A DNA stretch of 64,000 nt from an uncultured Verrucomicrobiae bacterium (lineage in GTDB: Bacteria > Verrucomicrobiota > Verrucomicrobiia > Palsa-1439). A program made the translations under genes and the position numbers. Under the pieces are notes generated by a model. It did not search any database. It was given only the letters and a program-made list of their open reading frames with translations, and was not told the origin of the DNA. This document shows, piece by piece, positions 2,414 through 47,424 of the stretch. The DNA lies in the NCBI GenBank assembly GCA_963812605.1, contig CAWEWF010000004.1, forward strand, positions 64,001 to 128,000. The letters run 5' to 3'. Numbering within the stretch: the first letter of the stretch is position 1; each line of letters begins with the position of its first letter.

Positions 2414-4503
2414 TTGGGAGACTGTATTTGTGAGGCCTGCAGGACTTATTTCGTTTGCCTTCTGGGTATCGGTGACGGGACTGTGTCTGCCCCGGTTGTG
2501 CACGGCCGAAACTTCTCTATGGGTCACCGGACGTGAAGAAGACTACATCAGTGGCGGCGGCCAATTCTTCTATAGTGCTCCGCCGGCTGCGATCAACAGT
2601 TTCTACGTTTCGCCATACATTGTTGAATGCGGGGTCGATTACTTGGCGGATGACTGGTTTCTAATCTTTGCGTCCACCAACGGCCTGCCCCTGACCGTGG
2701 GAACATATGCCCCCGCGGTCTCCCCGGTCCAGAATTCCCAGTACAACTGGCTCAATGTCAGCGGCGCCGGTCGAGGCTGCGACACCAGCATCGGTTCTTT
2801 CGAGGTGAAGCAGGTCGAGTATAGCACCAACTCCATGATGACGTCTTTCTGGGCCACGTTTGTCCAACACTGTGAGGAAGCCTGGCCGGCGACCTGGGGT
2901 GAAATCCGCTACAACGTATCCTTCCCGGTCGCGATTGCGGCCCCGAAACGCCAGGACATGAACTGGGGCGACTCGGTCAGCATGGTGATCACGGCTGCGC
3001 CGGCCATCGGTGGGCTCGCGACGCTCAGCGCCCCGAACCTGCCTAACGGAGCCAGCTTCACCGATAACGGCGATAACACCGGCCTGTTTACGTGGACTCC
3101 GGCGCTCAATCAGATCGGCCCGCACTACGTCAGCTTTCTTGGCGCGGATGGACAGGGCCAGTCCCACGCCGAGTCTGTCTTGCTCACGGTAAACGGTGTG
3201 ACCAGTCTCCGGATGGCCACTGACCCGGATAATTTGCTGGGCCAGAGCGCAGCGTCTTACACCACCGGCACCAACGCCGTCTGGACGGCCTATTACAACG
3301 GTAATGTGGTCGAATTCCATGGACCCAGCATATCGGCAGACCTCCTCTCTGCCAGCAACGTGTTGGCCGTCGGGCGCTACGACGGCGCCCAGCGCGCCTA
3401 TTTTCAACCACCGGGCACCCCGGGAATCGACATCGAAGGCGACTGCAACTCGATCACGGGCAGTTTCGAGATCAAACAGTTGGACCTGATCGACACCAAC
3501 GGGTGGTTCGCGTTTTCCGTAGTTTTTGAACAGTACTGCGACGGGTCCGGCCAGGCTCTCCGCGGGGAACTTCGTTACAACACTTCTCCACTCGTCGAAA
3601 TCCGCCCTCCCCTTTTCGTGGGGATACGCGCCGGTCAGCCCTCCACATTTCAGGTCGAGGCCAGTGACGCCTCGAGCAACGTCGTCCACCTCACCGCTGG
3701 GGCCCTTCCCTCCGGCAGCAGTTTCTCCGACAATGGCGATGGAACGGGAGTTTTCTCATGGACGCCCGCCACCAACCAGGTCGGAGCGTACGACGTGACC
3801 TTTTATGCTTCCAACAACGCGGCAATCACCGATCACAATCCCACGCACATTAGCGTCAACGCACCGGATCGTCCGCCCGTACCTGCGACGAGCGGGCCGT
3901 ATGTGGGAGATATTGGGCAGGCCGTCGCCTTTGACGCAAGTTCGTCTTCTGACCCGGATGGGGATGCGCTCACGTACGCGTGGAATTATGGGGACGGCAC
4001 CACGGGAACCGGCTCGATGTCCACGCACGCGTATTCCGCGCGCGGCATTTATTTGGCCACGCTGACCGCGAATGATGGCTGGCTTTCGGCAAGCACCACC
4101 ACTTCCGTGCGCGTCGGTAGTCTCGTTCCCGCGCAGATTTCCGTGACCAACAAACGGGGACTGCAAAGCTTTGGGAAAGGCCAATGGTCCTTCGTGCAGT
4201 TGCAAAATCAGGACGGGGATTTCAACCTCGCGGACATCGATCTTTCATCCGTACGCATGACTGTTGCCACCAACAGCGCGATCGCCTTTGCCCCTGTGAT
4301 CACTGCCAAGACGCACGCCAGCAAAGGCAAGGGCCGCAAGCCGATAAAACTTTGCTTTAGCAAGTATGATCTCCACTTGCTCTTCTGGTACCTGCAGGGA
4401 GCACCCGGCCCCGTCACCGTTACCATTACGGGTTATCTCACAACCGGCGACCGTTTCGAAGCCACTGTGGCAACGAACATCTAGTTTTCGGCCAGTCTCC
4501 CAA
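2414..4503. repeat. 11-bp perfect inverted repeat bracketing the surface-protein gene
   Basis: TTGGGAGACTG at 2414-2424 and its reverse complement CAGTCTCCCAA at 4493-4503. Confidence 0.6.
2430..4484 (+). CDS. Secreted surface protein: two copies of (uncharacterised beta domain + putative Ig/He_PIG), then PKD and a basic C-terminal domain
   Basis: Signal peptide; repeated C..GSFE(V/I)KQ...F(V/E)Q(H/Y)C...GE(I/L)RYN and LP.G.SF.DNGD.TG.F.WTP; PKD motif FDASSSSDPDGDALTYAWNYGDG. Confidence 0.8.
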   Translation: MRPAGLISFAFWVSVTGLCLPRLCTAETSLWVTGREEDYISGGGQFFYSAPPAAINSFYVSPYIVECGVDYLADDWFLIFASTNGLPLTVGTYAPAVSPVQNSQYNWLNVSGAGRGCDTSIGSFEVKQVEYSTNSMMTSFWATFVQHCEEAWPATWGEIRYNVSFPVAIAAPKRQDMNWGDSVSMVITAAPAIGGLATLSAPNLPNGASFTDNGDNTGLFTWTPALNQIGPHYVSFLGADGQGQSHAESVLLTVNGVTSLRMATDPDNLLGQSAASYTTGTNAVWTAYYNGNVVEFHGPSISADLLSASNVLAVGRYDGAQRAYFQPPGTPGIDIEGDCNSITGSFEIKQLDLIDTNGWFAFSVVFEQYCDGSGQALRGELRYNTSPLVEIRPPLFVGIRAGQPSTFQVEASDASSNVVHLTAGALPSGSSFSDNGDGTGVFSWTPATNQVGAYDVTFYASNNAAITDHNPTHISVNAPDRPPVPATSGPYVGDIGQAVAFDASSSSDPDGDALTYAWNYGDGTTGTGSMSTHAYSARGIYLATLTANDGWLSASTTTSVRVGSLVPAQISVTNKRGLQSFGKGQWSFVQLQNQDGDFNLADIDLSSVRMTVATNSAIAFAPVITAKTHASKGKGRKPIKLCFSKYDLHLLFWYLQGAPGPVTVTITGYLTTGDRFEATVATNI

Positions 4504-4556
4504 AATAGGCTTCCGCTGGCTGATTCGCTGGTTACAATGCCGCGAACGGAGACGCC

Positions 4557-5840
4557 ATGGACCTGATTCTTCGCAACGCGCGCGTACGCGGACACGACCA
4601 CAACGTCGATATCGCTGTCAACGATGGCCTTATCGCCAGAATCGCCCCGAAGATCACCGCGCGCCCGCGTCAGGTTATCGATTGCGCCAGTAAACTCGTC
4701 TCGCCGCCGTTCACCGATATCCATGTCCACCTCGACGCCGCACTCACCGTGGGACAACCGCGCTTCAACCAGAGCGGCACGCTCATCGAAGGCATCGAGA
4801 TTTGGGCGGAACGCAAGCGGACGCTCACGTTCGACGACGTGAAGCGCCGCGCCACGCTTGCTGTGAAATGGGAACTCGCCCATGGCGTCACGCGCATCCG
4901 CAGCCATGTCGATGTCTGCGATCCGCAACTCACCGCCGTCAAGGCGCTGCTTGAGGTGAAGAAAGAATTCGCGGGCCTCGTGGATATTCAACTCGTCGCG
5001 TTTCCGCAGGATGGCATCTACGCGTTTCCCAACGGCGAGCGGCTCATGGACCAGGCGATGGAACTCGGCTGCGACATCGTCGGCGGCATCCCGCATCATG
5101 AAATGACCCGCGAGGACGGTGTGGCCGATGTGAAGTTCGCCTGCGATCTCGCGCAGCAATATCACAAGCCGCTCGACCTCCATATCGACGAGACCGATGA
5201 CCCGAATTCGCGCTTCACGGAAGTATTAGCCGCCGAAACCATCAAACGCGGCCTCGGCGGACGCGTTACCGCCAGTCACACCACCTCCATGCACAGCGTC
5301 GACAATGCCTACGCTTTCAAACTCATTCGCCTCATTAAACGCGCCGGCCTGCACATGGTTACCAATCCGTGCGACAACAGCGTCCTTCAGGGCCGCTTTG
5401 ACACCTACCCCAAACGCCGCGGCCACACGCGCGTGAAAGAACTGCTCGCCGCCGGCGTCAATGTCGGCATCGGCCACGACTCGATCATGGATCCGTGGTA
5501 TCCGCTCGGCATTGGCGATCCCTTGCAAGTCGCTTTCGTCTGGATCCATTACGGCCAAATGAGCGGCGCCAACGAAATCCCGCAAGTGTGGGACATGATC
5601 ACGAAAAATCCGGCAAAGGCCTTCGGTGCCACCGACAAAGATTACGGCCTCATCGTTGGCAACCCCGCCGACCTGATTCTCCTCGACGCCGCCACCGAAT
5701 TCGACGCCCTCCGCCGCATCGCCCCCCGCCTGTTGGTAATGCGCCGCGGCCAAATCGTAGCCCGCACCACCCCGAGTGAAACCGTCCTCTGTCCGAAAGG
5801 GTGGAAGAAGGAAGTGATTGATTTCACGGTGCACGGATGA
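4557..5840 (+). CDS. codA: Cytosine deaminase (amidohydrolase family)
   Basis: DIHVHLD, NQSGTLIEGI, LHIDETDDP, ASHTTSMHS, GHDSIMDPWYPLG motifs. Confidence 0.92.
   Translation: MDLILRNARVRGHDHNVDIAVNDGLIARIAPKITARPRQVIDCASKLVSPPFTDIHVHLDAALTVGQPRFNQSGTLIEGIEIWAERKRTLTFDDVKRRATLAVKWELAHGVTRIRSHVDVCDPQLTAVKALLEVKKEFAGLVDIQLVAFPQDGIYAFPNGERLMDQAMELGCDIVGGIPHHEMTREDGVADVKFACDLAQQYHKPLDLHIDETDDPNSRFTEVLAAETIKRGLGGRVTASHTTSMHSVDNAYAFKLIRLIKRAGLHMVTNPCDNSVLQGRFDTYPKRRGHTRVKELLAAGVNVGIGHDSIMDPWYPLGIGDPLQVAFVWIHYGQMSGANEIPQVWDMITKNPAKAFGATDKDYGLIVGNPADLILLDAATEFDALRRIAPRLLVMRRGQIVARTTPSETVLCPKGWKKEVIDFTVHG
5746..5819 (+). repeat. Direct repeat copy 1: current codA 3' end
   Basis: 74 bp matching 6240-6313 with 5 mismatches, all synonymous. 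Confidence 0.95.
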
Positions 5841-6022
5841 AGGTTCGCGAAGTCCTCAGATTATTACGTGACGACGGTTGGTACCTGGCGCGGCAGCGCG
5901 GAAGCCACCAACAATATAAGCATCCCACAAAACGCGGGCTGGTCACGGTCGCCGGCAAACCGAACGACGACCTTGCGCCCGGCACATTAAACAGTATACT
6001 AAAGCAAGGGGAGCTAAAATGA
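5837..6022 (+). CDS. hicA: HicA family toxin
   Basis: GW...RQRGSHQQYKHP...VTV...LAPGTLNSILKQ; overlaps the codA stop (ATGA). Confidence 0.93.
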   Translation: MKVREVLRLLRDDGWYLARQRGSHQQYKHPTKRGLVTVAGKPNDDLAPGTLNSILKQGELK

Positions 6023-6234
6023 CGAAGTATCTCATCGTTGTCGAAAAGACATCAACGGGCTATTCAGCCTTCTCGCCCGATTTGCCCGGCTGCATTGCCA
6101 CGGGCGCAACGCACGAGGAAGTTGAAGGAACAATGCGCGAGGCGGTTCAATTCCATCTCGACGGTCTCCGCGAAGAAGGTCTGGACATTCCCTTACCTCA
6201 CAGCTACTCGACGTACTGCGAACTCCCCGCCTAA
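6019..6234 (+). CDS. hicB: HicB family antitoxin (short, no C-terminal DNA-binding domain)
   Basis: YSAFSPDLPGCIATGAT.EE...EAVQFHLDGL. Confidence 0.92.
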   Translation: MTKYLIVVEKTSTGYSAFSPDLPGCIATGATHEEVEGTMREAVQFHLDGLREEGLDIPLPHSYSTYCELPA

Positions 6235-6239
6235 CGCAG

Positions 6240-6337
6240 GCGGCCAAATCGTCGCCCGCACCACCCCGAGCGAAACCGTCCTGTGTCCGAAGGGCTGGAA
6301 GAAGGAAGTGATTACGTTCGCCCCGGCACATCGGTAG
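6240..6337 (+). pseudogene. Displaced orphan 3' end of codA (direct repeat copy 2)
   Basis: Encodes GQIVARTTPSETVLCPKGWKKEVITFAPAHR*; identical to the CodA C-terminus over 24 aa. Confidence 0.9.
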
Positions 6338-6357
6338 GGCGAGCGTCCCGCTTGCCG
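6334..6357 (+). repeat. GTAG-type REP, family A
   Basis: GTAG-GGCGAGCG-TCC-CGCTTGCC-G hairpin; related copies at 41411, 41803, 41839 and 63975. Confidence 0.85.
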
Positions 6358-6373
6358 TCACGGATTACCGCAG

Positions 6374-6607
6374 ATGAATTTCGAATTATTAAGCGAGATT
6401 GCGGAAATCGAAACGATTGCCCGAGGATCGGGCATCCGTGACCTTCCCCGTCTGCGCCGCCTCTACGGACCAGGAAACTGGCGGAAACTCAAGGGCGTTG
6501 CTCGCATTCGTCTAGCCAGCGGGAGGATTAGAATCGCCTAGTTGCATTGGTATGAAGCTCATGGTACTGGTAAAAAGGAAATGAAGCGAAAACGCTACCG
6601 GGACTGA
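6374..6607 (+). pseudogene. Small basic toxin-like protein with an internal TAG (not in the ORF track)
   Basis: Manual translation MNFELLSEIAEIETIARGSGIRDLPRLRRLYGPGNWRKLKGVARIRLASGRIRIA*LHWYEAHGTGKKEMKRKRYRD; TAG at 6539-6541. Confidence 0.75.
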
Positions 6608-6610
6608 AGC

Positions 6611-6841
6611 ATGCCCAAACGACCGCACATGAAACCTGAGTTCGTTATTTGCATCAATAACGAAGGCTATCCTGCGTCGTTGGAGTTGCACAAAGTTTAC
6701 CGCGTGATTCCCGATGCGGAGGCCGCTGCCGACGACGATATTCGGGTCGTGGACGAATCCGGCGAAGACTACTTGTATCCCGCTTCGTTTTTTGTCCTGA
6801 TCCAAGTCCCGGCCCCTGTGGAACGCGCCCTGTCGGCATGA
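6611..6841 (+). CDS. Small acidic conserved hypothetical protein, putative antitoxin/immunity partner
   Basis: FVICINNEGYPASLELHKVY...IRVVDESGEDYLYP; starts 3 nt after the basic ORF stops. Confidence 0.75.
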   Translation: MPKRPHMKPEFVICINNEGYPASLELHKVYRVIPDAEAAADDDIRVVDESGEDYLYPASFFVLIQVPAPVERALSA

Positions 6842-6956
6842 GCGGCCGAATCATCCCCGCCGTTCACCGAATGAGAGTGTCCTCTGGGTGAAGGGTGAAA
6901 GAGCGGAATGATCGGCTTTGATTGAAGTTGTGAATGACAATTGAGGGGTATCGCCG

Positions 6957-7487
6957 ATGAAATTCTCGACGCCTCCGTCCAAGACAGTGCCCTTCTATGC
7001 ACACCCGACCTTGGTGATACTTGTATCGACCATAGGGCTAATCTCTGGCATTCTCGCCGTATACACAGTTCGATTGGCCTCACAACTGTCAAGCCTGCCC
7101 TTGGGTGATCTAGGATGGCTTGGTCGGCTGTTTGAAATCGTCTGGTCCCCGCGTGCTCCTTGGGTGTCCTTCGCTGTCGGAATTGCTGTTGGCTTGGTCA
7201 TTATATCAGTGCAAAAACGCTTGTTGCGCTCTCATATCCTCTTCTATGCCGACTTTTTCACGATGCCCCTCTTGGAGCGGCTTCGTTGGGATGTGCTGAG
7301 CACCAATCTTACGGCGTGCCTACCGACGGTGGTCGGTCCATTGGTGGCGGCAGGCGTAGCCTGCGCCTTACAAATCAGCCCTTGGCCCGCTTTTTTCGGT
7401 CCAAGCATCTGTTCCTTTCTCGTCTACCCCGAGCAGAAGTTGATCTACGAAGCGACCAAGTCGCGCCTCGTATCACAAGAGGCATGA
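6957..7487 (+). CDS. Hypothetical membrane protein
   Basis: Several hydrophobic segments; GAGGGG SD; more AT-rich than the flanks. Confidence 0.6.
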   Translation: MKFSTPPSKTVPFYAHPTLVILVSTIGLISGILAVYTVRLASQLSSLPLGDLGWLGRLFEIVWSPRAPWVSFAVGIAVGLVIISVQKRLLRSHILFYADFFTMPLLERLRWDVLSTNLTACLPTVVGPLVAAGVACALQISPWPAFFGPSICSFLVYPEQKLIYEATKSRLVSQEA

Positions 7488-7489
7488 AC

Positions 7490-7584
7490 ATGAAACTCCG
7501 CTACTCGACCACATCGATTTCCGCGTGCGCAATGTCGCGCGGGCAGGGAAGTTTTATGTGCCGCTGCTTGCCGTATTTGCCTAA
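7490..7584 (+). pseudogene. Truncated VOC/glyoxalase N-terminal remnant
   Basis: Frame from 7501 reads LLDHIDFRVRNVARAGKFYVPLLAVFA*, a typical VOC beta1-alpha1 start; out of frame with the ATG at 7490. Confidence 0.55.
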
Positions 7585-8492
7585 TCCGGCGTGATGCGCC
7601 TGGCGCTGGGCAGGGGGGCGGCGTAGCCGCTCGTTAGGAACGCGCGCACTTCGGAGTCCAACACGAACGGCGGATCCAGTTTCGGGTCGCGTTCGGGCAA
7701 CAGCGTGTCCACGCCCAAGCCCTCGTCGCGCAACGCCTGGCCGTAGCTGAGCGGGTCCGCAGGGTCTTTCACCTTCAGGTTCATCGCCCGCGCGCACGTC
7801 ACGTAGACATTGTCCACGGTCACGCATGTGCCGAGGTGCCAGCCACCGAGCGGTCCGATGGCGAGCTTCGTCAATGCCTTGAGGCAATCTTCCGGCGTCG
7901 CTTGGGGATCGAGTTTCAAATCCATTGCGCGCGTCAACAAGGCGGCGAACTGCTCGTGATGCAGGCAGGTCTGCCCGGTGCGCTCGACAAATCGTCGCTT
8001 GACCGGTGCTAACGGTGACCGCGGGATGATTTTAATATCGGTCGTGATCGGAGCGTTTGTTGCGACCGGCGGAATTTCTTGCGGAGGTGTGGCCGGGAGA
8101 GCGAGACTGGCGGCGCATCCTTGGGCTTCGAGGAGTAATTTCTCCGCGCGCTCGCAGGAAATCCTCACGTTGCCGAGGTAGTCCACCGCTTTGTCCGGGT
8201 CCGCCGCTCGAATGGCTTTCTGGGTGTCTCGCTGGGCCTCCTCCGTCAATTCGAGCAAACCTTTGATCTTCAGCGCGCGCGAGTGGACGCAATCCGCCAG
8301 CGCGGCCTGTTCCGGCGGTATTTTTTCCTCCAACCGGGACGCCTCGTCATAGATTTCGCGCAAACGATGCACGCAGGCGTCGGATTGCTGCAGCGGCTCG
8401 GGATTATTCGTCGGCGACTCAGCGCGTCCCGGCCGAATGCCGAGCAGGATCGCGAGCGCGATCACCCACGTCCCTTGGAACCTTTGCCGCAT
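7581..8492 (-). CDS. Secreted hypothetical protein (Cys-containing helical N-domain, Pro-rich linker, SLH-like C-terminal repeats)
   Basis: Signal peptide MRQRFQGTWVIALAILLGIRPGRA; TACACT 8 nt upstream supports the start at 8492. Confidence 0.7.
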   Translation of the reverse strand: MRQRFQGTWVIALAILLGIRPGRAESPTNNPEPLQQSDACVHRLREIYDEASRLEEKIPPEQAALADCVHSRALKIKGLLELTEEAQRDTQKAIRAADPDKAVDYLGNVRISCERAEKLLLEAQGCAASLALPATPPQEIPPVATNAPITTDIKIIPRSPLAPVKRRFVERTGQTCLHHEQFAALLTRAMDLKLDPQATPEDCLKALTKLAIGPLGGWHLGTCVTVDNVYVTCARAMNLKVKDPADPLSYGQALRDEGLGVDTLLPERDPKLDPPFVLDSEVRAFLTSGYAAPLPSARRITPD

Positions 8493-8654
8493 GGGTTCGC
8501 AGTGTACCCGGGGCGATGAAAAGCGCAAGCTGCTCGTATCCCCGCGACGTTTTGTCCAAAGAAGTTTGAATACGCCCGCGCCCGTTATGTCTAACTGGCA
8601 AACCGAACCCACGGCCTTTTTCGTTGTAACCTGCGGGAGGCGTTCCTATACTTC

Positions 8655-10902: not shown

Positions 10903-11920
10903 ATGCAAACTCTCTCCACAAAACGTCTCGACAAAATCCTTTCTCGCTTTCCCCGCCAACGCATTCTTGTCGTCGGCGATGTGATGCTTGATCAATTTCT
11001 TTGGGGCAAGGTGTCGCGCATCTCGCCCGAGGCTCCGGTGCCTGTAGTGGAGATCACCCGGGAATCGTTCTTTCCCGGCGGCGCGGCGAACGTCGCCCGC
11101 AATCTGCGCGCGCTCGACTCGTCGGTCAGTCTGCTCGGCGTGCTCGGGGACGATGACGCGGGCGCGGAGTTGCGCGGCCTGCTCGACCAGCAGGGCGTCG
11201 ATACCGCCGGCCTGATTGTGGACCCCAACCGACCCACGACGGTCAAGACGCGCATCGTCGCCCACCACCAGCAAATGGTTCGCTTCGACCGCGAACAATG
11301 TCTTGGGCTATCATCTGCGCTGGAGCGCAAGGTCTTGGAAAGCTTCGAGTCACATCTGAAAAACGTTCTCGGCGGTCATCTTCGAGGACTACGCCAAAGG
11401 CGTTTTGTCGCAAAAGCTGCTCAACGTCCTGCAACGACGGGCGCACCGAGCGCGCAAGATTACGGCGGCGGACCCGAATTCGCGTCAGCGGCTCCATTAC
11501 TCCGGGCTCACCGTGGTCACGCCGAACCGCAGCGAGGCATTCGCGGCAGCCGGCCTGCCGTACGTCGAGCCGGACACCGAGGTGCTGCGCGATGAAGCGC
11601 TGCTGCGCGTGGGGCAAAAATTATTGCGCACCTGGAAACCGCGCAACCTGCTGGTCACGCTCGGCGAACACGGCGTCTGCCTGTTTCGTCCCGGCAAAAA
11701 GCCGCATCACATCCCGACGGTCGCGCAGGAGGTGTTCGACGTGTCGGGCGCCGGCGACACGGTGATTGCGACGCTCGTGCTCGCGTTGGCCGCCGGGGCC
11801 GATCCGATTGAAGCGGCGGAAATCTCCAACCACGCCGCCGGCATCGTCGTCGGCAAAGTCGGCACCGCCACCTGCTCGCCGGATGAACTAGTGGAAAGCT
11901 TCGAGAGAGAGCGGCGCTAG
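10903..11920 (+). CDS. rfaE1: D-glycero-beta-D-manno-heptose-7-phosphate kinase (RfaE/HldE kinase domain only); frameshift near 11367
   Basis: VVGDVMLDQF.WGKVSRISPEAPVPVV, GGAANVA, DYAKG, EVFDVSGAGDTV, split over two frames. Confidence 0.9.
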
Positions 11921-11931
11921 AGCCGGCCCGC

Positions 11932-12548
11932 TTACTTGCAGACCACTTCCTGGTCGAGCTTGAGGCGCTCGAGTTCGGGCTTCACGATCTTGTCGCGGCA
12001 ATCGGGGCAGATGCCGTGGGTGAACTGCGCCTCGGAGTGGTCGGCCACGTAGGTGTCCACCTGCTGCCAGTAGTTTTTGTCGTCGCGGATTTTTTTGCAG
12101 TAGCAACAAATCGGCAACAATCCCTGCAACAGCTTGACATTGGCGAGCGCGAGTTCGAGTTCCTTCACGCGCGCGGCCAGTTCGGCTTGCAGGCGGAGGA
12201 TGCGTTCGCCGGCGTTGATGCGCGCCTTCAACTCGGCGCGGTCAAACGGCTTGATCACGTAATCGTCCGCGCCCGCCGTGAGGCCCTGGACAATGTCTTC
12301 CTTGCGGCCCTTGGCGGTGAGCAAAATCATGTAGAGGAGCCGTTCACCGGCCAACTCGCGAGCTTTAACACAGACCTGCGAGCCATCGAGGCCCGGCATC
12401 ATCCAGTCCAGGATTGCCAGCGAAGGCGCATCGGCCTGGCTCAGGGCTTCGAGGGCCTGCAAGCCATCGGTGGTCACGACAACCTCATACCCCCACTTGG
12501 CAAGGGTCGCCTCCAAGAGGTGGCGTGACACCGCGTCGTCTTCCGCAA

Positions 12549-37358: not shown

Positions 37359-37859
37359 ATGGAAGAAACCTCGGTCACACGTGAGGAGAATTCTATGCAG
37401 TTCGAGGAAAGAGTGTTGGGCGCCGTCAATGCCTACCGCAACCGCCAGGAACGGACGGTGGCTGTTGCGGAACGGACAGAGCAGATGGAAGAAATGGCGG
37501 CCGAGCGATTCAATAAGATCGTCGAATCGGACGTCCTCCCCCTCTTCAATAAAACGGCGGAGCTATTGAAGGACAGTTGTACCGTTCAGATCCATCGCCA
37601 GGAGCACACGCCGGAGCGGCCGTTTGTCGTGAGCGTGGAAATGGTCATCACCCCCAGGGAAGGCGTGTACATTCGCCGGCTGCGCCAGCCGTACCCGAAA
37701 TTGGAGATCTGCCTGAGACAAAAGACGCTCAAGGTGGTCATCTTCACCGAACAACTGCGCCTGGCGAAATTACACCTGGAGGAAATCGATTTCGCCGAAC
37801 TGACCGCGGAGAAGCTGGAACAGTGCGTCCACGATTTTATTGTGGAAATTTTCCGGTGA
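37359..37859 (+). CDS. Hypothetical protein whose 3' end is duplicated downstream
   Basis: Host-like codon use; mostly synonymous divergence from the duplicate supports coding status. Confidence 0.75.
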   Translation: MEETSVTREENSMQFEERVLGAVNAYRNRQERTVAVAERTEQMEEMAAERFNKIVESDVLPLFNKTAELLKDSCTVQIHRQEHTPERPFVVSVEMVITPREGVYIRRLRQPYPKLEICLRQKTLKVVIFTEQLRLAKLHLEEIDFAELTAEKLEQCVHDFIVEIFR

Positions 37860-37868
37860 GTCCGATTG
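37757..37868 (+). repeat. Direct repeat copy 1 (about 110 bp)
   Basis: Matches 40546-40657; 14 differences over the 102-nt coding part. Confidence 0.92.
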
Positions 37869-37879
37869 CTTTTGTTTCC

Positions 37880-40326
37880 CTACTCGGAGATTGGGGACCT
37901 CAACGGACGCAAGGACGTTATTGTCGGTATCGGTGGCAAAGAAAAAGGTGCCCGCCTGGTTTCCATTGAGCTTGCTCTTCTTGATCTTGATCGTGACTGA
38001 TTTGCCTTCGCTAAGGGGATTCACCTTCTTCGCCAGAAAGGCGATGCCGACATTTGGATTGAAGGCGCTGCCCTGCCCCAACCAGAGCAGAACATAGAAC
38101 TTGGGGGTGTTTTCCACGCCGGTATTGGTGACCACCAGATCAAAATCGACCGCGCAGGTGGTATTGGTTGTCGCCTTCTTTTTATCGATCTTGGTCTTGC
38201 AGGTCTGCGCCACCTGGGTGAAGGCGAAACCCAAGGTCGCTCCGGCCTGATGAATGGTGAACGCCTGATCCGCAATCGTCATCGTGACGGTGCGGGCCGT
38301 GCCGGTATTCGCCGCCAAGGTGTAACTGACCGTGCCGCTGCCGAGGCCGTTGGTGCCGGCGGTGATCGTAATCAGGCTGCTGTTGCTGGCGGCGGTCCAG
38401 TCGCAGTTGGTCCCGTTGACGGTGACCACGACGTTGCTGGAGCCTCCCGCCGCGCTGAAGTTGGCGGCGGTCGAGTCGAGCGAGAAGGTGCAGGCAGCCG
38501 CGTCCTCGGTGACCGTGAAGGTTTGCCCAGCGATGGTCAGCGTGCCGGTTCGAGCGACGGTGTCGGTGTTGGTGGCGACGGTAACAGTGACCGTGCCGTT
38601 GCCAACGCCGCTGGCGCCGCTGGGGCCATTGGTAATGGTGATAAAGCTGTCGTTGCTAACGGCGGTCCAGGCGCAGTTGGTCCCGTTGGCGGTGAACGTG
38701 ATATCGCCAGTGGCTCCGTCCGCACTGAGGTCGACGTTGGTGAAATCGAGCGTAAAGGCGCAGGGAGCCGCCGGCTGGGTGATGGTGTAGGTTTGTCCGG
38801 CAACGGTGATTGAACCGGTTTGGACGATGGCGTCGGCATTGGTGGCAACCGTGTAACCGACCGTGCCGTTTCCGCTGACGATACCGACATCGGTGACCGT
38901 GATAAAGCCGCTGTTGCTGACAGCGGTCCAGGTGCAGTTGGTCCCGTTGGCCGTGACCACGATGTTGCTGGAGCCTCCATCCACACCAAAGTCGGCGTTG
39001 GTCGAGTCCAGCGCGAGCGCGCAGGCGACACCCGCCTCGGTGATGATGTAGGTCTGTCCCGCAACGGTCAGCGAGCCGGTCAAACCAAACGTGTTGGGGT
39101 TGGCGGTGACGGTGTAACTGACCGTGCCGTTGCCGGTGCCGCTGCTGCCGGCGGTGACGGCGATGAAACCACTATTGCTGGCCGCCAGCCAATCGCAGTT
39201 GGTCCCGGCGGTGACCACAATGTTACTGGCCCCTCCCGTCGCGTCATAGCTGGCGCTGGTGGAGTCGAGCAAGAAAGTGCAACCAACGCCCGTTTGGACA
39301 ATGGTGAAAGTCTGGCCGGCAACGGTCATCGTGCCGGTGATTTCGTTGCTGCTCGTGTTGGCGGCAATGGTATAACTCACCATGCCATTGCCGGAGCCGC
39401 TGGCGCCCGAGTTGATCGTGATGAAGCTGTCATTGTTGGTGGCCGTCCAGGCGCAGCCATTCTGCGCGGTGACAATGACCCCGCCATCGCCACCGGCGGC
39501 GGTAAACATCACGTTGGTCGGACTGATCGCGAACACGCAGACGGTCGTGCCCACCACGATGCTGAACTGGGTCTGTGCGAAGTAGGTGGTCACGCCGAGG
39601 GCGCCGGGCACGCTGTTGGTATCGTTGGATATGATCTTGATGAATTCCAGGTGCCCGGTATTGGTGGTGCCGCGCGGTCAATAACCCCGCGGGAACGAGG
39701 AAATTCGTTGCCGTGCCGTCCAACTGCCCGGGCTGTCCAAGGTCAGGCGTATTGGTGATCGTGTTACCGGATCCGTCGTCGATCTCGAAGCTGACCGCAT
39801 CATTGGTGGTCCCGTTCGTGAACGATCCCCACACGAAGACGAAGTTGGTCGAGGCGTCAATCACCTGGGCCGCGTCGAAATTCAGGATTTGTGGCGGGTT
39901 GGGATAGGCGTCGCCCGACAGAGTCTCCGCGGGGGTAAGCGTCCCGTCGTCCGCAGTGCCGATGGTCATGAGGTAGGTACCGTTGGTGAACACGGCATCC
40001 ATCGATGGTTGATCTATGAAGAGCGACTGGAACTCGAATTTGGAACTCGCGGGGTCAGTCAGTGACAAAACGACGTTGCTGCCGCCCGGGACCTGGACGG
40101 CGGCGCTGAGGATCGTATTCGAGCCGGTGCCCGTGACAATGGCCTGGAACATGAACCCGGTTGCCGACAGCGTGGGCGCGCCCGAGGTGAACTGGTCGAA
40201 CAACTGACCTTTGGCGGCTGGCACATAGAGGGTGACGTCGAAGGGTGAGGCGTTCGCGCGTGCGCTGCCGGCCAGTAACAGGACTGCCAGACATCCGCGC
40301 CATAGCCACGAACCAAAATATTTCAT
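37880..40326 (-). CDS. Secreted surface protein with five BACON-like repeats and a Lys-rich C-terminal domain; frameshift near 39672 and probably near the stop
   Basis: Signal peptide MKYFGSWLWRGCLAVLLLAGSARANA; 5x C...GG...VT...C.W.A.SN..FIT...G.G.V.YT...N...G..T.AGQT. Confidence 0.85.
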
Positions 40327-40545
40327 CGTCTCTTCCTGGTTTGTTGGAATGTCAGTGTGCCGTGATTCTGGAAAGGTCGGAAGAGGCACATGGAAACACG
40401 ACGCCAAGCTCATCACCCTCCGCAGTGGGTTGAAGTACAACAAAGCCATGCCCGACCGTCAAGTGAATTTGGGTTACTCGAAGCCGCCGGATGTATTCGG
40501 TGGCAGTAGCGCCCGAACCATCGTCGGAAGTCATTCCGCGGGCAC

Positions 40546-40657
40546 GCGTCTGGCGGAACTACAGCTGGAGGAGATCGATTTCGCCAAACTGACCGCGGAG
40601 AAGCCGGAACAGTGCGTTCATGATTTCATCGTGGGGATTTTTCGGTGATTCCGGTTG
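40546..40657 (+). pseudogene. Displaced orphan 3' end of the 37359-37859 gene (direct repeat copy 2)
   Basis: RLAELQLEEIDFAKLTAEKPEQCVHDFIVGIFR* versus RLAKLHLEEIDFAELTAEKLEQCVHDFIVEIFR*. Confidence 0.9.
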
Positions 40658-43840: not shown

Positions 43841-43911
43841 CCGCCCGACCGTTGGTGATGGCGCACGGTTTTTGTAGTCGGGACTCGCGGCACTCGGTAC
43901 AATCCGCCGCA

Positions 43912-45661
43912 ATGGACCGCCCTTGGATTCGGACGACGCTCGTGCTGTGCGTGTTCGCCGCGGTCTTCATCACGCTGACGGTCGGCAGTTACACGCGGCA
44001 ATCCGCAACGTCTGATGAGCCGATTCATTTGGCCGCGGGCTACACAGCGCTGCGCCTGCATGATTACCGTGTCGACCAGGAGCATCCGCCATTCCTGCGC
44101 ATGTGGGCCGCCTTGCCGCTGCTGATGTTGCCGGATGTGCAACTCGGCACCAATGACATCTCGTGGCGGACGGGACACGATTGGGACTTTAGTCATCACT
44201 TCCTGTACGAGATCAATGATGCCGACCGCTTGCTCTATCGCGCCCGGTTCATGACGGTCGTGCTCGGCATTGTGTTGGGCGTGCTCCTTTTCTGCTGGGG
44301 ACGGGAACTCTTCGGTTTCTGGACGGCGACCGCAGTCCTTGCGCTCTACTGCCTCGAGCCGAACATTCTCGCGCACTCCGGCCTGGTCACGACGGATCTC
44401 GGTGTGACGTGCTTTATTTTCGGCGCGCTCTATTTTCTCTGGCGACTGACGCGAAGGTTTACCTGCGGCAACGCAGCGGGCCTGGCCGCGTTCTTCGCGC
44501 TCGCGCAGGTTTCCAAATTCTCCGCGTTGGTGCTCGGGCCGATTGTCGTGGTGCTGTTGCTCGTTCATGTGCTGTGCGGAGGCGCATGGTCTTACCGGTT
44601 TGGCAATCAGGGCGAATTCCGTTCACTTCGACAGAAGACGCTCGCCATGATTGTTGTCATTGGATTGCTCGCGATCACTTCGTACGCCGCCGTTTGGGCC
44701 GTTTACGGTTTCCGTTACGGGCCGACGGCCCCGAGCGTCGATCTCGCGCGCGTGCAGGATAACCCGGACATTCTCAAGCATGTGCACACCGTTTCCGTCG
44801 TCGCCAACTGGTTCGACAAACATCGGCTCCTGCCCGACGCCTACACGCACAGCCTGGTCCTTGGCCAGGTCAAAGCCCAGCGCCGTACGCGCTTACTTTG
44901 CGGGCGAATTCAGCCGCACTGGCTGGTGGTATTATTTCCCCGTGGTGTTCCTGGTCAAGACGCCATTGACCGTGCTGTTGCTTTTCATCTGCGGTTTGGT
45001 GCTCAGCGTGAAAACGCGCGCACACTGGAAAAGCGAAGACGCGTTCCTCGTCCTGCCGTTGGTGATTTACCTCGGCGTCGCCATGACGGCGCACCTCAAC
45101 ATTGGTCTGCGCCACATCCTGCCCATCTACCCGTTGGTCCTGCTGATCTGCGGAATCACCCTGGAGGAAATGCGCGTGAGGTGGCGCCCTCTTTTCCTCA
45201 TGGCGCCAATTGTACTTGCGGCTGTTGAACTTGGTTTTGTCTATCCCCACTGCCTCGCGTTCTTCAATCAACTCGTCGGCGGGCCCAAAAATGGCCATCT
45301 GGTCCTGCTCGATTCGAACCTCGACTGGGGCCAGGATCTCAAACCGCTGAAACTCTGGATGGACGCGCATCATGTCGAGCAAATCAACCTCGGTTACTTC
45401 GGCACGGCGGACCCTGCCTACTACGGGATTCATGCGACACCGTTGCTGGGTTCACCCTCGTTCTTGACAGCGCAGGTGACGGAGCCGCGCCTGCCCGGGT
45501 ACGTTGCCGTGAGCGTGCAAAACCTCCACGGTGTGTGGTCGCGCCAGGCGACACTCAATTACTACGCGCCGCTGTTGGACCGAGAGCCAACCGCCGTCAT
45601 CGGTTACTCGATTCACGTCTATTGGGTTGAAACCAATTGGTGGTACAATTCCCAGCCATGA
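43912..45661 (+). CDS. GT-C glycosyltransferase (ArnT/PMT-like), paralog 1; frameshift near 44885
   Basis: SATSDEP.H, EHPPF, EPNILAH, SKFS, NIGLRH, DSNLDWGQDL; multiple TM segments. Confidence 0.85.
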
Positions 45662-47424
45662 ACTTTTCCGAACGGCAGCGCTCCGCCATTAGCTTGCTCG
45701 TCTTCGCCGCCGTTTTTATCGCGCTAACCGTCAGCAGTTACACGCGCGAGTCGGCGACCTGGGACGAGCCGCAACACGTGGTCACGGGCTACTGCGCCCT
45801 TCGGTTCCACGACTACCGCACGGATCCGGAGCATCCCCCATTCCTCCGCCTGTGGGCAGCATTACCGCGGCTCGCGATGGATGACGTCAAGGTGGATCTC
45901 CGGATGATCGACCAGACCGACCCCATGACATGGACGGCGGGAGGACAGTTCTTTTTCTGTCATGACGTGCTTTACGTCGCCAATGATGCCGACCGTTTGT
46001 TGTACCCGGCGCGATTTATGATCGTGCTGCTCGGCGTCTTACTGGGCGTGTTGCTCTTTTGTTGGTCGCGCGAACTGCTCGGGTTCTGGCCCGCGGTGAT
46101 GGTACTGGGCCTGTACACCATCGAACCCAATCTATTGGCGCATGCGCGCCTGGTCACAACCGATTTTGGCGTGACGTGCTTTACCTTTGGCACGATATAC
46201 TTCCTCTGGCGAACGACGCGGCTGCTGAGCCTGGGGAATTTATGCGGCCTGCTGGGGTTCTTTGCGCTGGCGCAGATCAGCAAGTTTTCGGCGCTCTTGC
46301 TGGGCCCGATCGTCCTGGCGCTGCTTATTGTTCGCGTCTGCCAGAAAGAGCCGTGGCCGAAGAAGCTTCGCGGGCGAACGGGCGTGCGCAGCCGGTTCGC
46401 GAAGTTGGCGGTGGCGATGTCCATCGTCGCCGCGCTTGCTGTGACGACGTGGATGGCGATTTGGGCCGTCTACGACTTCCGGTATCTCCCTTCGGAGTCC
46501 ACCACCTGGCGCTGGAATCTCCAGCAGGACCCGGGCGTGCTTGAACGCGCTCCCCTGCTCACGAAGGTCATCGGATGGGTGGACGAACATGAGTTGTTGC
46601 CAAACGCCTATAGCCAGGGGTTTCTGCTCGGACAGGTCAAAGCGCAGAAACGCAGCGGATTTCTCGCGGGTGATTACAGTCTCAAGGGCTGGTGGTATTT
46701 CTTCCCGTTTGCGTTCCTCATCAAGACTCCCATCTCCCTGGTCCTGCTCTTTCTTGCGGGCGTCGGCTTGTGTGCGGTGCACTGGCGACGCTTCCTCGAT
46801 CACAACGTCTATACCGTCTTGCCGTTGGCGGCATTCCTGGGAGCGGCGATGATGATGAGGCTGAACATTGGCGTGCGCCACATCCTGCCCATCCAACCCT
46901 TCGTGCTGCTGCTGGCGGGTAACGCCACTGCGGAACTGTACGCCAGCCAACGAAAGCCCCTTCGCGTGTTGCTGGGCGCGCTCGGTCTCCTGGCCGTCAC
47001 CGAATTCGCTTTCATTTGTCCGCATTATCTCGCGTTCTTCAACCAGTTCGCCGGCGGCCCGCGAAATGGACACCAGTACCTCGTCGATTCCAATCTCGAT
47101 TGGGGACAGGATTTGAAGGGTTTGAAGAGTTGGATGGACCAGCACCAGGTGCAACACATCAACCTGAGCTACTTCGGCACGGCGGATCCCGCCTATTACA
47201 AGATCGATTGCACCTATCTTCCCGGCAGTCCCTTTTTTGACGAGAGACTTGTGAGAGGTCCGCAACTACCCGGCTTCGTCGCCGTAAGTGTCACCAATCT
47301 GAGGGGGGTTTATCTAGGGGAACGCTCGCGGGATATTTACAAGAGGCTGCTGGAAACCGAACCGGTGGCGATGATTGGCTATTCGATCTACGTGTACCAG
47401 GTCGAGCATCCGTGGTGGCAGTAA
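45658..47424 (+). CDS. GT-C glycosyltransferase (ArnT/PMT-like), paralog 2
   Basis: Same motifs as the upstream paralog (SATWDEP, EHPPF, DSNLDWGQDL). Confidence 0.87.
   Translation: MNFSERQRSAISLLVFAAVFIALTVSSYTRESATWDEPQHVVTGYCALRFHDYRTDPEHPPFLRLWAALPRLAMDDVKVDLRMIDQTDPMTWTAGGQFFFCHDVLYVANDADRLLYPARFMIVLLGVLLGVLLFCWSRELLGFWPAVMVLGLYTIEPNLLAHARLVTTDFGVTCFTFGTIYFLWRTTRLLSLGNLCGLLGFFALAQISKFSALLLGPIVLALLIVRVCQKEPWPKKLRGRTGVRSRFAKLAVAMSIVAALAVTTWMAIWAVYDFRYLPSESTTWRWNLQQDPGVLERAPLLTKVIGWVDEHELLPNAYSQGFLLGQVKAQKRSGFLAGDYSLKGWWYFFPFAFLIKTPISLVLLFLAGVGLCAVHWRRFLDHNVYTVLPLAAFLGAAMMMRLNIGVRHILPIQPFVLLLAGNATAELYASQRKPLRVLLGALGLLAVTEFAFICPHYLAFFNQFAGGPRNGHQYLVDSNLDWGQDLKGLKSWMDQHQVQHINLSYFGTADPAYYKIDCTYLPGSPFFDERLVRGPQLPGFVAVSVTNLRGVYLGERSRDIYKRLLETEPVAMIGYSIYVYQVEHPWWQ

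Follow-up and report, generated by a model that had tools for sequence, protein, structure and literature searches.

Anatomy of the codA locus

The sequence analyzed here, referred to as the window, comprises 64,000 nucleotides (nt) from an uncultured Verrucomicrobiae bacterium (contig CAWEWF010000004.1, positions 64,001-128,000), and all coordinates below are those of the window. It is ordinary core chromosome and carries the genes for YbeY, histidyl-tRNA synthetase, SecDF, Tgt, ClpB, BamA, DnaB, SSB and Prs. At the cytosine deaminase gene codA, a toxin gene (hicA) and an antitoxin gene (hicB) are placed between the working end of codA and a second copy of that end. Read along the plus strand, the locus runs codA-E1-tail A, hicA-hicB, E2-tail B, broken orf55-orf76, E3 and then further cargo, where E1, E2 and E3 are copies of the codA end (Table 1). 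Relatives were obtained with a codA contig scan that yielded 70 loci, 20 of which were Verrucomicrobiia metagenome-assembled genomes (86-96% amino acid identity); sequence 3' of codA was present in 19 loci. The closest relatives of codA were 89% identical at the DNA level and therefore belong to different species.

A repeat search aligned E1 (5746-5819) with E2 (6240-6313) over 74 nt, with 69/74 positions identical (93%) and a spacing of 494 nt. The five differences (GTA/GTC, AGT/AGC, CTC/CTG, AAA/AAG and GGG/GGC) all fall on third positions and are synonymous, and they divide the repeat into identical runs of 13, 17, 11, 8, 2 and 18 nt, none of which stands out as a crossover core. When 200,000 sets of five random substitutions were simulated, all five were synonymous at a frequency of 6e-4 and all five were third-position changes at a frequency of 3e-3. 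Past the repeat the copies split, one ending in DFTVHG* (stop 5838-5840) and the other in TFAPAHR* (stop 6335-6337). The repeat and its synonymous-only differences had been reported in a preliminary description made from the sequence alone, and were confirmed by the repeat search and by codon reading. Zero non-synonymous changes were present in E2 relative to any working end.

The C-terminus of the codA product was conserved through ..KKEVI and then hypervariable in sequence and length (20 loci and 36 database proteins), even between proteins that were >90% identical. Full-length proteins carried either ITF-type tails (ITFDPSQR, ITFDPAHR, ITFNPSQR) or IDF-type tails (IDFRI, IDFKA, IDFQPTQL, IDFTVPR), and tail class was independent of overall codA identity. 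The orphan tail of the window, ITFAPAHR, differs by one residue from ITFDPAHR, the working tail of relative L017, and the working tail of the window, IDFTVHG, is similar to IDFTVPR, the working tail of the full-length protein P0001. The earlier claim that both ends are functional codA alleles was supported: both resemble working alleles, and both tail classes occur on full-length orthologues. As a separate observation, codA of L007 (5405-5605) shifts frame within the conserved end (..CPKGLEEGSHH..), which is either a real frameshift or an assembly error.

The segment 6240-6841 (E2, tail B, hairpin, orf55 and orf76) is collinear with the working codA end plus orf55-orf76 in L003 and L011, and the hairpin sequence GGGCGAGC also occurs 3' of the L017 codA stop. 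Given that E2, its tail and the hairpin are collinear with the working ends of L003 and L011, E2 is therefore taken as the displaced native end, in agreement with the suggestion of the preliminary description that the orphan copy is the native one. Base counts were not decisive on this point, with 57-71/74 bases of E2 and 58-68/74 bases of E1 matching those of relatives; the GTA codon was the sole feature of E1 that was unique among the 16 relatives compared. A sliding comparison of codA with the same number of relatives (16) did not show a clear recombination breakpoint near the 3' end, and the codA end was no more conserved as DNA than the remainder of codA.

The hicA and hicB genes are joined to codA and to each other by overlapping starts and stops, with codA and hicA sharing ATGA at 5837-5840 and the hicB ATG overlapping the hicA TGA at 6019-6022. 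A scan of 4300-7700 for sigma-70-like promoters and intrinsic terminators called 0 sites of either kind. Because no promoter was called upstream and the starts and stops overlap, expression of hicA and hicB most likely proceeds from the codA transcript via translational coupling. The order and overlap are those of type II HicAB systems, in which hicA lies upstream of hicB. The pair differs from these systems in that the 71-amino-acid HicB covers only profile positions 1-64 of 123, so that the C-terminal DNA-binding domain for autoregulation is missing, and in that expression would depend on the host gene.

Beyond E2 lie an older cassette (orf55-orf76) and further cargo. When orf55 was read through its in-frame stop, the product was 82% identical in amino acids to that of the L003 gene, and the frame was otherwise open to 6607. 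The orf76 product was without a match in Pfam, NCBIfam, PADLOC or PDB sequences; its family comprises 3063 cluster representatives at E <= 1e-3 and has a near-invariant DESGEDYL motif. The third codA end, E3, which is absent from the preliminary description, was detected by a profile built on the final 130 nt of codA; decoys scored at most 7.8 bits (reversed sequences) and 7.1 bits (2000 shuffles). Clear similarity in E3 starts at GCGGCC (6842), the same first bases as in E2, and E3 differs from E2 by many mismatches and several insertions or deletions. The locus is consequently not the single minimal insertion that had been described; it comprises three codA ends and two or more stacked cassettes. 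A comparison of cassette proteins with PADLOC gave no match (0/11), and among 10 proteins compared with NCBIfam only codA and the glyoxalase-family protein of L001 were matched, and the cassette proteins were not.

Table 1. Features between the start of codA and the convergent gene that closes the variable interval (window coordinates)
Feature	Position	Strand	Evidence or remark
codA, cytosine deaminase, 427 amino acids, intact	4557..5840	+	NF005748 521.8 bits vs cut-off 438; Amidohydro_3 E 1.2e-50
E1, working copy of conserved codA end (..GQIVARTTPSETVLCPKGWKKEVI)	5746..5819	+	Repeat search; nhmmer 120.5 bits
Tail A (DFTVHG*), stop overlapping hicA start as ATGA	5820..5840	+	IDF tail class
hicA, toxin gene, 61 amino acids	5837..6022	+	PF07927 (HicA_toxin) 81 bits vs cut-off 27, residues 4-57
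hicB, antitoxin gene, 71 amino acids, short form	6019..6234	+	PF15919 (HicB_lk_antitox) 41.9 bits vs cut-off 27
Linker, hicB stop to orphan codA end, 5 nt	6235..6239	+	
E2 plus tail B (TFAPAHR*), probable recently orphaned native codA end, in no translated gene	6240..6337	+	nhmmer 87.4 bits
Post-stop hairpin of native codA end, eight-pair stem	6338..6356	+	Predicted fold
orf55, older cassette gene 1, broken by in-frame TAG at 6539-6541 (GAG in L003)	6374..6607	+	
orf76, older cassette gene 2, intact	6611..6841	+	91% amino acid identity to L003
E3, old decayed orphan codA end abutting orf76 stop	6842..6923	+	nhmmer match 6824-6923, 23.5 bits, E 8.4e-6
orf176, further variable cargo, hydrophobic	6957..7487	+	Without Pfam, NCBIfam or PADLOC match; 0/19 related loci
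Glyoxalase-family gene remnant, residues 7-27 of 130	7507..7569	+	tblastn; PF00903 on L001 copy
Conserved convergent gene closing hot spot	7581..8612	-	3' of codA in 13/19 loci

Related loci and shared junctions

The gap between codA and the convergent gene was highly variable among the 19 related loci. The preliminary description had proposed looking for empty sites and for other cargo at this junction, and both exist. Empty sites accounted for 4/19 loci, with gaps of 0 (L006), 21 (L008), 57 (L014) and 179 nt (L005). The glyoxalase-family gene that is a remnant in the window is intact at the same spot in L001, L013, L016 and L019, and fragments of it lie in the gap of L004, L007 and L015. Other contents were a HEPN protein (L004), a weak IS200-like (Y1) match (L018), and, in L017, the series codA, IS630-like transposase (11415-12459, minus strand) and hicB, the transposase having DDE_3 and HTH domains but being split over two frames. 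L012 (6397-6856) and L007 (5637-6048) carry an overlapping pair of small genes encoding 73 and 89 amino acids (65 in L007); the pair had no significant family match, the 73-amino-acid protein giving a weak DUF2281 match (E 0.022) below the curated cut-off.

Cassette order was permuted among these loci. In the window hicAB is followed by orf55-orf76, whereas L001, L003 and L011 have orf55-orf76 followed by hicB: the order is codA-orf55-orf76-hicB in L003 and L011, and codA, broken orf76, hicB, orphan codA end and glyoxalase gene in L001. The orf55 start of L003 shares ATGA with the codA stop, as the hicA start does in the window. Erosion was seen as the in-frame TAG of orf55 in the window, a stop codon in the orf76 of L001, and a hicB cut to 22 codons in L003. 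Further copies of the codA end were searched for in 23 related loci and were found only in L001, with stubs in L011 and L017; a full-length second codA was present in 0/19 loci. Two side observations concern gene order in the relatives: orf76 is tightly followed by hicB, with hicA absent, and the distance from orf76 to hicB is 8-11 nt in L001 and L011.

The window shares its hicB-codA-end junction with L001, L011 and L017. In all four, 5 nt separate the hicB stop from a codA end that starts at the same first base; the copy behind hicB is full length in L001 (nhmmer E 9.8e-22) and ~28 nt long in L011 and L017. The same junction is crossed by P0171, a 39-amino-acid metagenome open reading frame (ORF) that ends in IDFNMQVD. 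At least three orphan tails thus occur at one hicB junction (ITFAPAHR in the window, VMTFQPNAGS in L001 and IDFNMQVD in P0171), and two of them are seen as working tails elsewhere, in L017 (ITFDPAHR) and in the codA fragment P0158 (ITFQPNAGS). Between the orphan of L001 and the working end of the same locus there are 8 differences, including 3 non-synonymous ones, whereas the orphan of the window has no non-synonymous change; orphans at different stages of decay therefore call for repeated exchange with working ends. The reading of the unit as a one-off foreign fragment was not supported, for hicB diverges in step with its flanking genes (91% nucleotide identity to L001). The hicB-5 nt-codA-end junction is, moreover, common to three other species-level lineages, in which hicB stands behind orf55-orf76 and hicA is absent.

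The divergence of hicB was followed in three relatives. Its orthologues were 96% (L001), 89% (L017) and 80% (L011) identical in amino acids, with differences mostly at third positions, and 91%, 84% and 79% identical in nucleotides, values near those of codA and the downstream genes. Nucleotide identity to L001 was 89% for codA, 91% for hicB and 81-90% for the downstream genes; identity to L003 was 86% for both codA and orf76. Because hicB identities track those of codA and of the downstream genes, hicB would be a long-standing resident of the locus, or mobile within the clade only. It must once have been accompanied by hicA. Separately, three lineages without hicA retain an intact hicB under purifying selection (L001 11685-11900; L011; L017), which may be an antitoxin on its own or belong to a module of three genes.

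Close relatives of HicA, at 92-97% identity, formed nine clusters located on short metagenome contigs, and some of these contigs suggest that the left junction (codA tail-hicA) may also be shared. P0166 ends in ISFDVHE (..FDVHE, compared with ..FTVHG in the window), and P0166 and the 92% HicA P0044 have the same listed sources, with source contigs of equal length (900). The source contigs of P0167 and the 97% HicA P0038 are both listed as 4918 long. P0166 itself is a codA remnant of 65 amino acids that seems to have lost almost all of the codA body between two ..IAP.. motifs.

Proposed recombination through codA ends and its alternatives

We infer, with moderate confidence, that cassettes were added and shuffled by ordinary homologous recombination through the repeated codA ends. 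Small promoter-less cassettes would pile up between codA and the convergent gene at 7581-8612, each bordered by one copy of the conserved terminal ~75-100 nt of codA, and RecA-type homologous recombination between the copies would add, remove and re-order them. By one route, a circle would be looped out between two copies and re-inserted into another copy by one crossover; by a second route, a linear donor would pair through a left arm on codA and through its own orphan copy on the working end of the recipient. In this process codA would receive a replacement end and stay intact, the previous end would be displaced downstream as an orphan, and the newest cassette would be the one nearest codA. 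A 494-bp circle is possible, and its product would be the same as that of a linear double crossover with the orphan copy of the donor as right arm.

The arrangement in the window could be reached in one step, if the orphan that follows hicB in one chromosome crossed over with the working end in a chromosome that carries codA-orf55-orf76. The other arrangement would require the opposite crossover and then loss of the middle end and the toxin gene. Where a codA-end copy lies at each border, a permuted cassette order is the expected product of exchange between copies. The locus would thus be a footprint of such events, with displaced ends at several stages of decay, conserved junctions and a lineage-specific order. 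In its favor are the three codA ends in series, with decay growing with distance from codA (E1, E2, E3), together with the highly variable gap, the permuted order and the three orphan tails at one hicB junction. The collinearity of E2, tail B and the hairpin with the native ends of L003 and L011, the differing decay of the orphans, the possible recurrence of the left junction and the published accounts of islet spread (PMC13617665) and alternative repeat pairing (PMC3784515) point the same way. No integrase, transposase or recombinase was matched among the 68 window ORFs scanned for mobility families (thresholds of E <= 0.01 for 7 ORFs and E <= 1e-5 for 61), as the preliminary description had also found, and the repeats lack an integron-like fold.

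Several points weigh against recombination through codA ends. Within the 74-nt repeat, E1 and E2 share no identical run longer than 18 nt, a short stretch for exchange driven by RecA. The model leaves the first joining of hicB to a codA end unexplained, and it requires an extra deletion (the old end plus hicA) for the arrangement in L001, L003 and L011. By tblastn, hicA was found in 0/19 related loci, and donor DNA with codA-hicA-hicB was not seen. Co-location of P0038 with P0167, of P0044 with P0166 and of P0170 with P0171 rests on equal listed lengths only, and every sequence used is a metagenome assembly of uncultured bacteria. The negative result for mobility families in the window is limited by the 29/61 ORFs that were without any Pfam match. 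Finally, hicB tracks its flanks, and vertical descent from one old insertion followed by rearrangement could explain much of what is seen.

That last alternative, stated in full, is one ancient insertion followed by vertical descent with local deletions, gene conversion and unequal sister exchange, and with no transfer between lineages. It would fit the similar identities of hicB, orf76 and the flanks to each relative (L001, L003) and the purifying selection on hicB in loci without hicA. We consider it unlikely, given that E1 and E2 of one genome have different tail classes and synonymous-only differences, so that E2 was not refreshed from E1, and that orphan tails vary by lineage and match the working tails of other lineages. 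Moreover, hicA is present in the window and absent in the closest relative, and copies 92-97% identical to it circulate in metagenomes. A local tandem duplication of the codA end that decayed in place would leave direct repeats such as those found 494 nt apart. The preliminary description had argued against it, and it is rejected here as scarcely credible, since synonymous changes make up 5/5 differences (p about 6e-4), each tail represents a different natural allele class, and none of the 19 loci has a full-length second codA.

Site-specific recombination in trans would make the codA end the attachment site of an integrase encoded elsewhere or on a lost element, with the cassettes as its non-autonomous passengers; they would resemble an e14/icd-type element reduced to its cargo, a cis-mobilisable element or an integron-like array. 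Integrase-bearing elements classically leave a duplicated gene end together with a replacement end (e14, icd/icdC; available part of PMC13626634), two different cassettes each abut a codA-end copy starting at GCGGCC, and the boundary of the hicB junction is fixed in four lineages. A fixed hicB boundary is, however, equally expected from a single old junction, and by nhmmer E3 extends 18 nt more in the upstream direction than E2 does, so that the two may not have the same boundary. An integrase was found neither in the 64-kb window nor among the ORFs scanned next to codA in 9 related loci, where the sole mobility genes were the frameshifted IS630-like transposase of L017 and the weak Y1 match of L018. 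Conservation of the codA end at the DNA level is unremarkable, and E1 and E2 are without an attC-like fold (z-scores 1.1 and 0.04). Site-specific recombination is accordingly judged to be quite improbable. An attC-like structured repeat had been considered as a candidate and was rejected, the folds of E1 and E2 on both strands giving z-scores of 0.01 to 1.11; E3, alone among the three ends, had a fold z-score of -2.41. ARAGORN called 0 tRNA genes.

An assembly artefact, in which the contig switched between co-existing strains inside the codA-end repeat, has to be weighed where the window and its relatives are likely all metagenome assemblies. Related contigs do break here (L002 ends within the tail, and two genomes have codA divided between two contigs), and the relatives of hicA lie on very short contigs. 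Such an origin is nevertheless considered very improbable. The hicB-linker-end junction occurs in four independent assemblies and cannot arise by collapse or switching, since reads must span it; the sequence after E2 could be affected. L001, an independent assembly, carries a working end as well as an orphan behind hicB, stubs persist in L011 and L017, and both flanks of the window are closest to one relative, L001.

If homologous recombination through codA ends is the correct account, short gene ends would serve as self-carried homology arms by which tiny selfish cassettes insert costlessly and borrow expression, and the hypervariable C-terminal tail of the codA enzyme among close relatives would also be explained. 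A more far-reaching idea, which we put forward as tentative and somewhat doubtful, is that the 3' end of a housekeeping gene acts as a portable recombination site carried by the cassettes. The locus would then be an integrase-free analogue of an integron, with entry by host recombination that leaves the gene unharmed, ~0.5-kb circles, re-entry at any copy and orphan ends that record the order of arrival. Were this so, the second gene-end duplication described below, around unrelated cargo, would make it a general way for these bacteria to gain genes.

Comparison with known systems and a second gene-end duplication

In integron arrays, small cassettes without promoters are lined up, a recombination site follows each of them, and the newest stands at the entry point; toxin-antitoxin cassettes are common in them and shuffling proceeds via circular intermediates. 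The codA locus differs from an integron in having no IntI or attI and no structured attC, the site being a piece of host coding sequence. Phage 21 inserts in the icd gene of Escherichia coli, as does the element e14. For e14, the available part of PMC13626634 describes a replacement 3' end of icd, with the displaced native end left as an orphan (the icdC pseudogene), and icd and icdC copies that differ mainly synonymously and recombine with each other to give chimeric genes. The e14/icd case and the codA locus have in common direct repeats of the target-gene 3' end and a working copy supplied by the insert. By contrast, e14 is ~15 kb long, has its own integrase and is excised site-specifically, whereas the codA unit is 494 bp, has no integrase and occurs with several stacked cassettes.

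Toxin-antitoxin systems cluster in small spots and erode, and for compact islets, homologous recombination at the core genes on either side has been proposed as the means of spread (Belot et al. 2026, PMC13617665, in the part available); in the same part, chromosomal entry of toxin-antitoxin genes without a nearby mobile element is described as unclear. Features of such islets were found at codA, namely a variable interval between core genes, empty sites, no mobile-element genes and erosion. Islets in the available part of PMC13617665 likewise contain toxin-antitoxin genes only, lie between core genes without mobile-element genes, are absent in close relatives and are becoming pseudogenes. The islet model as given there places the cassette between homology arms with no duplication, whereas here the cassette is inside a core-gene end and a second copy of that end is present. 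The extra end copy at codA leaves a readable footprint and would allow stacking and re-ordering, unlike in those islets.

In experiments, a donor repeat was able to pair with a different chromosomal copy, giving duplications with hybrid repeats (Johnston et al. 2013, available part of PMC3784515). Campbell-type insertion-duplication, homology-facilitated illegitimate recombination and alternative pairing resemble the model for codA in that homologous pairing of repeats makes duplications; those cases were produced in the laboratory or are large duplications with insertion sequences at their borders, unlike the series at codA. Variable hicAB arrangements in genomic hot spots are described for ANME-1 archaea (PMC13385816, in the part available). 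Full-text searches of the literature (supplements aside) turned up neither a toxin-antitoxin cassette with a duplicated host-gene end and no integrase, nor a minimal one that brings a spare host-gene end and stacks with others, nor cassettes naturally arrayed at a single gene end.

A second gene-end duplication is present in the window at 37757-37868 and 40546-40657, where 96/112 nt are identical and several changes are non-synonymous. The last ~33 codons and the stop of an ORF at 37359-37859 (plus strand) form the tail of an otherwise unrelated ORF at 40232-40648, 2.8 kb downstream. The 2.7 kb between the copies holds two minus-strand genes, including one for a BACON-repeat protein, and this cargo is not a toxin-antitoxin system. 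Judged from the sequence, the duplication is of the same architecture as that at codA, with larger cargo. The BACON-domain gene contains, at 38298-39465, internal tandem repeats of ~260-270 nt, and two adjacent paralogous PMT_2 glycosyltransferase genes occupy 43852-47424.

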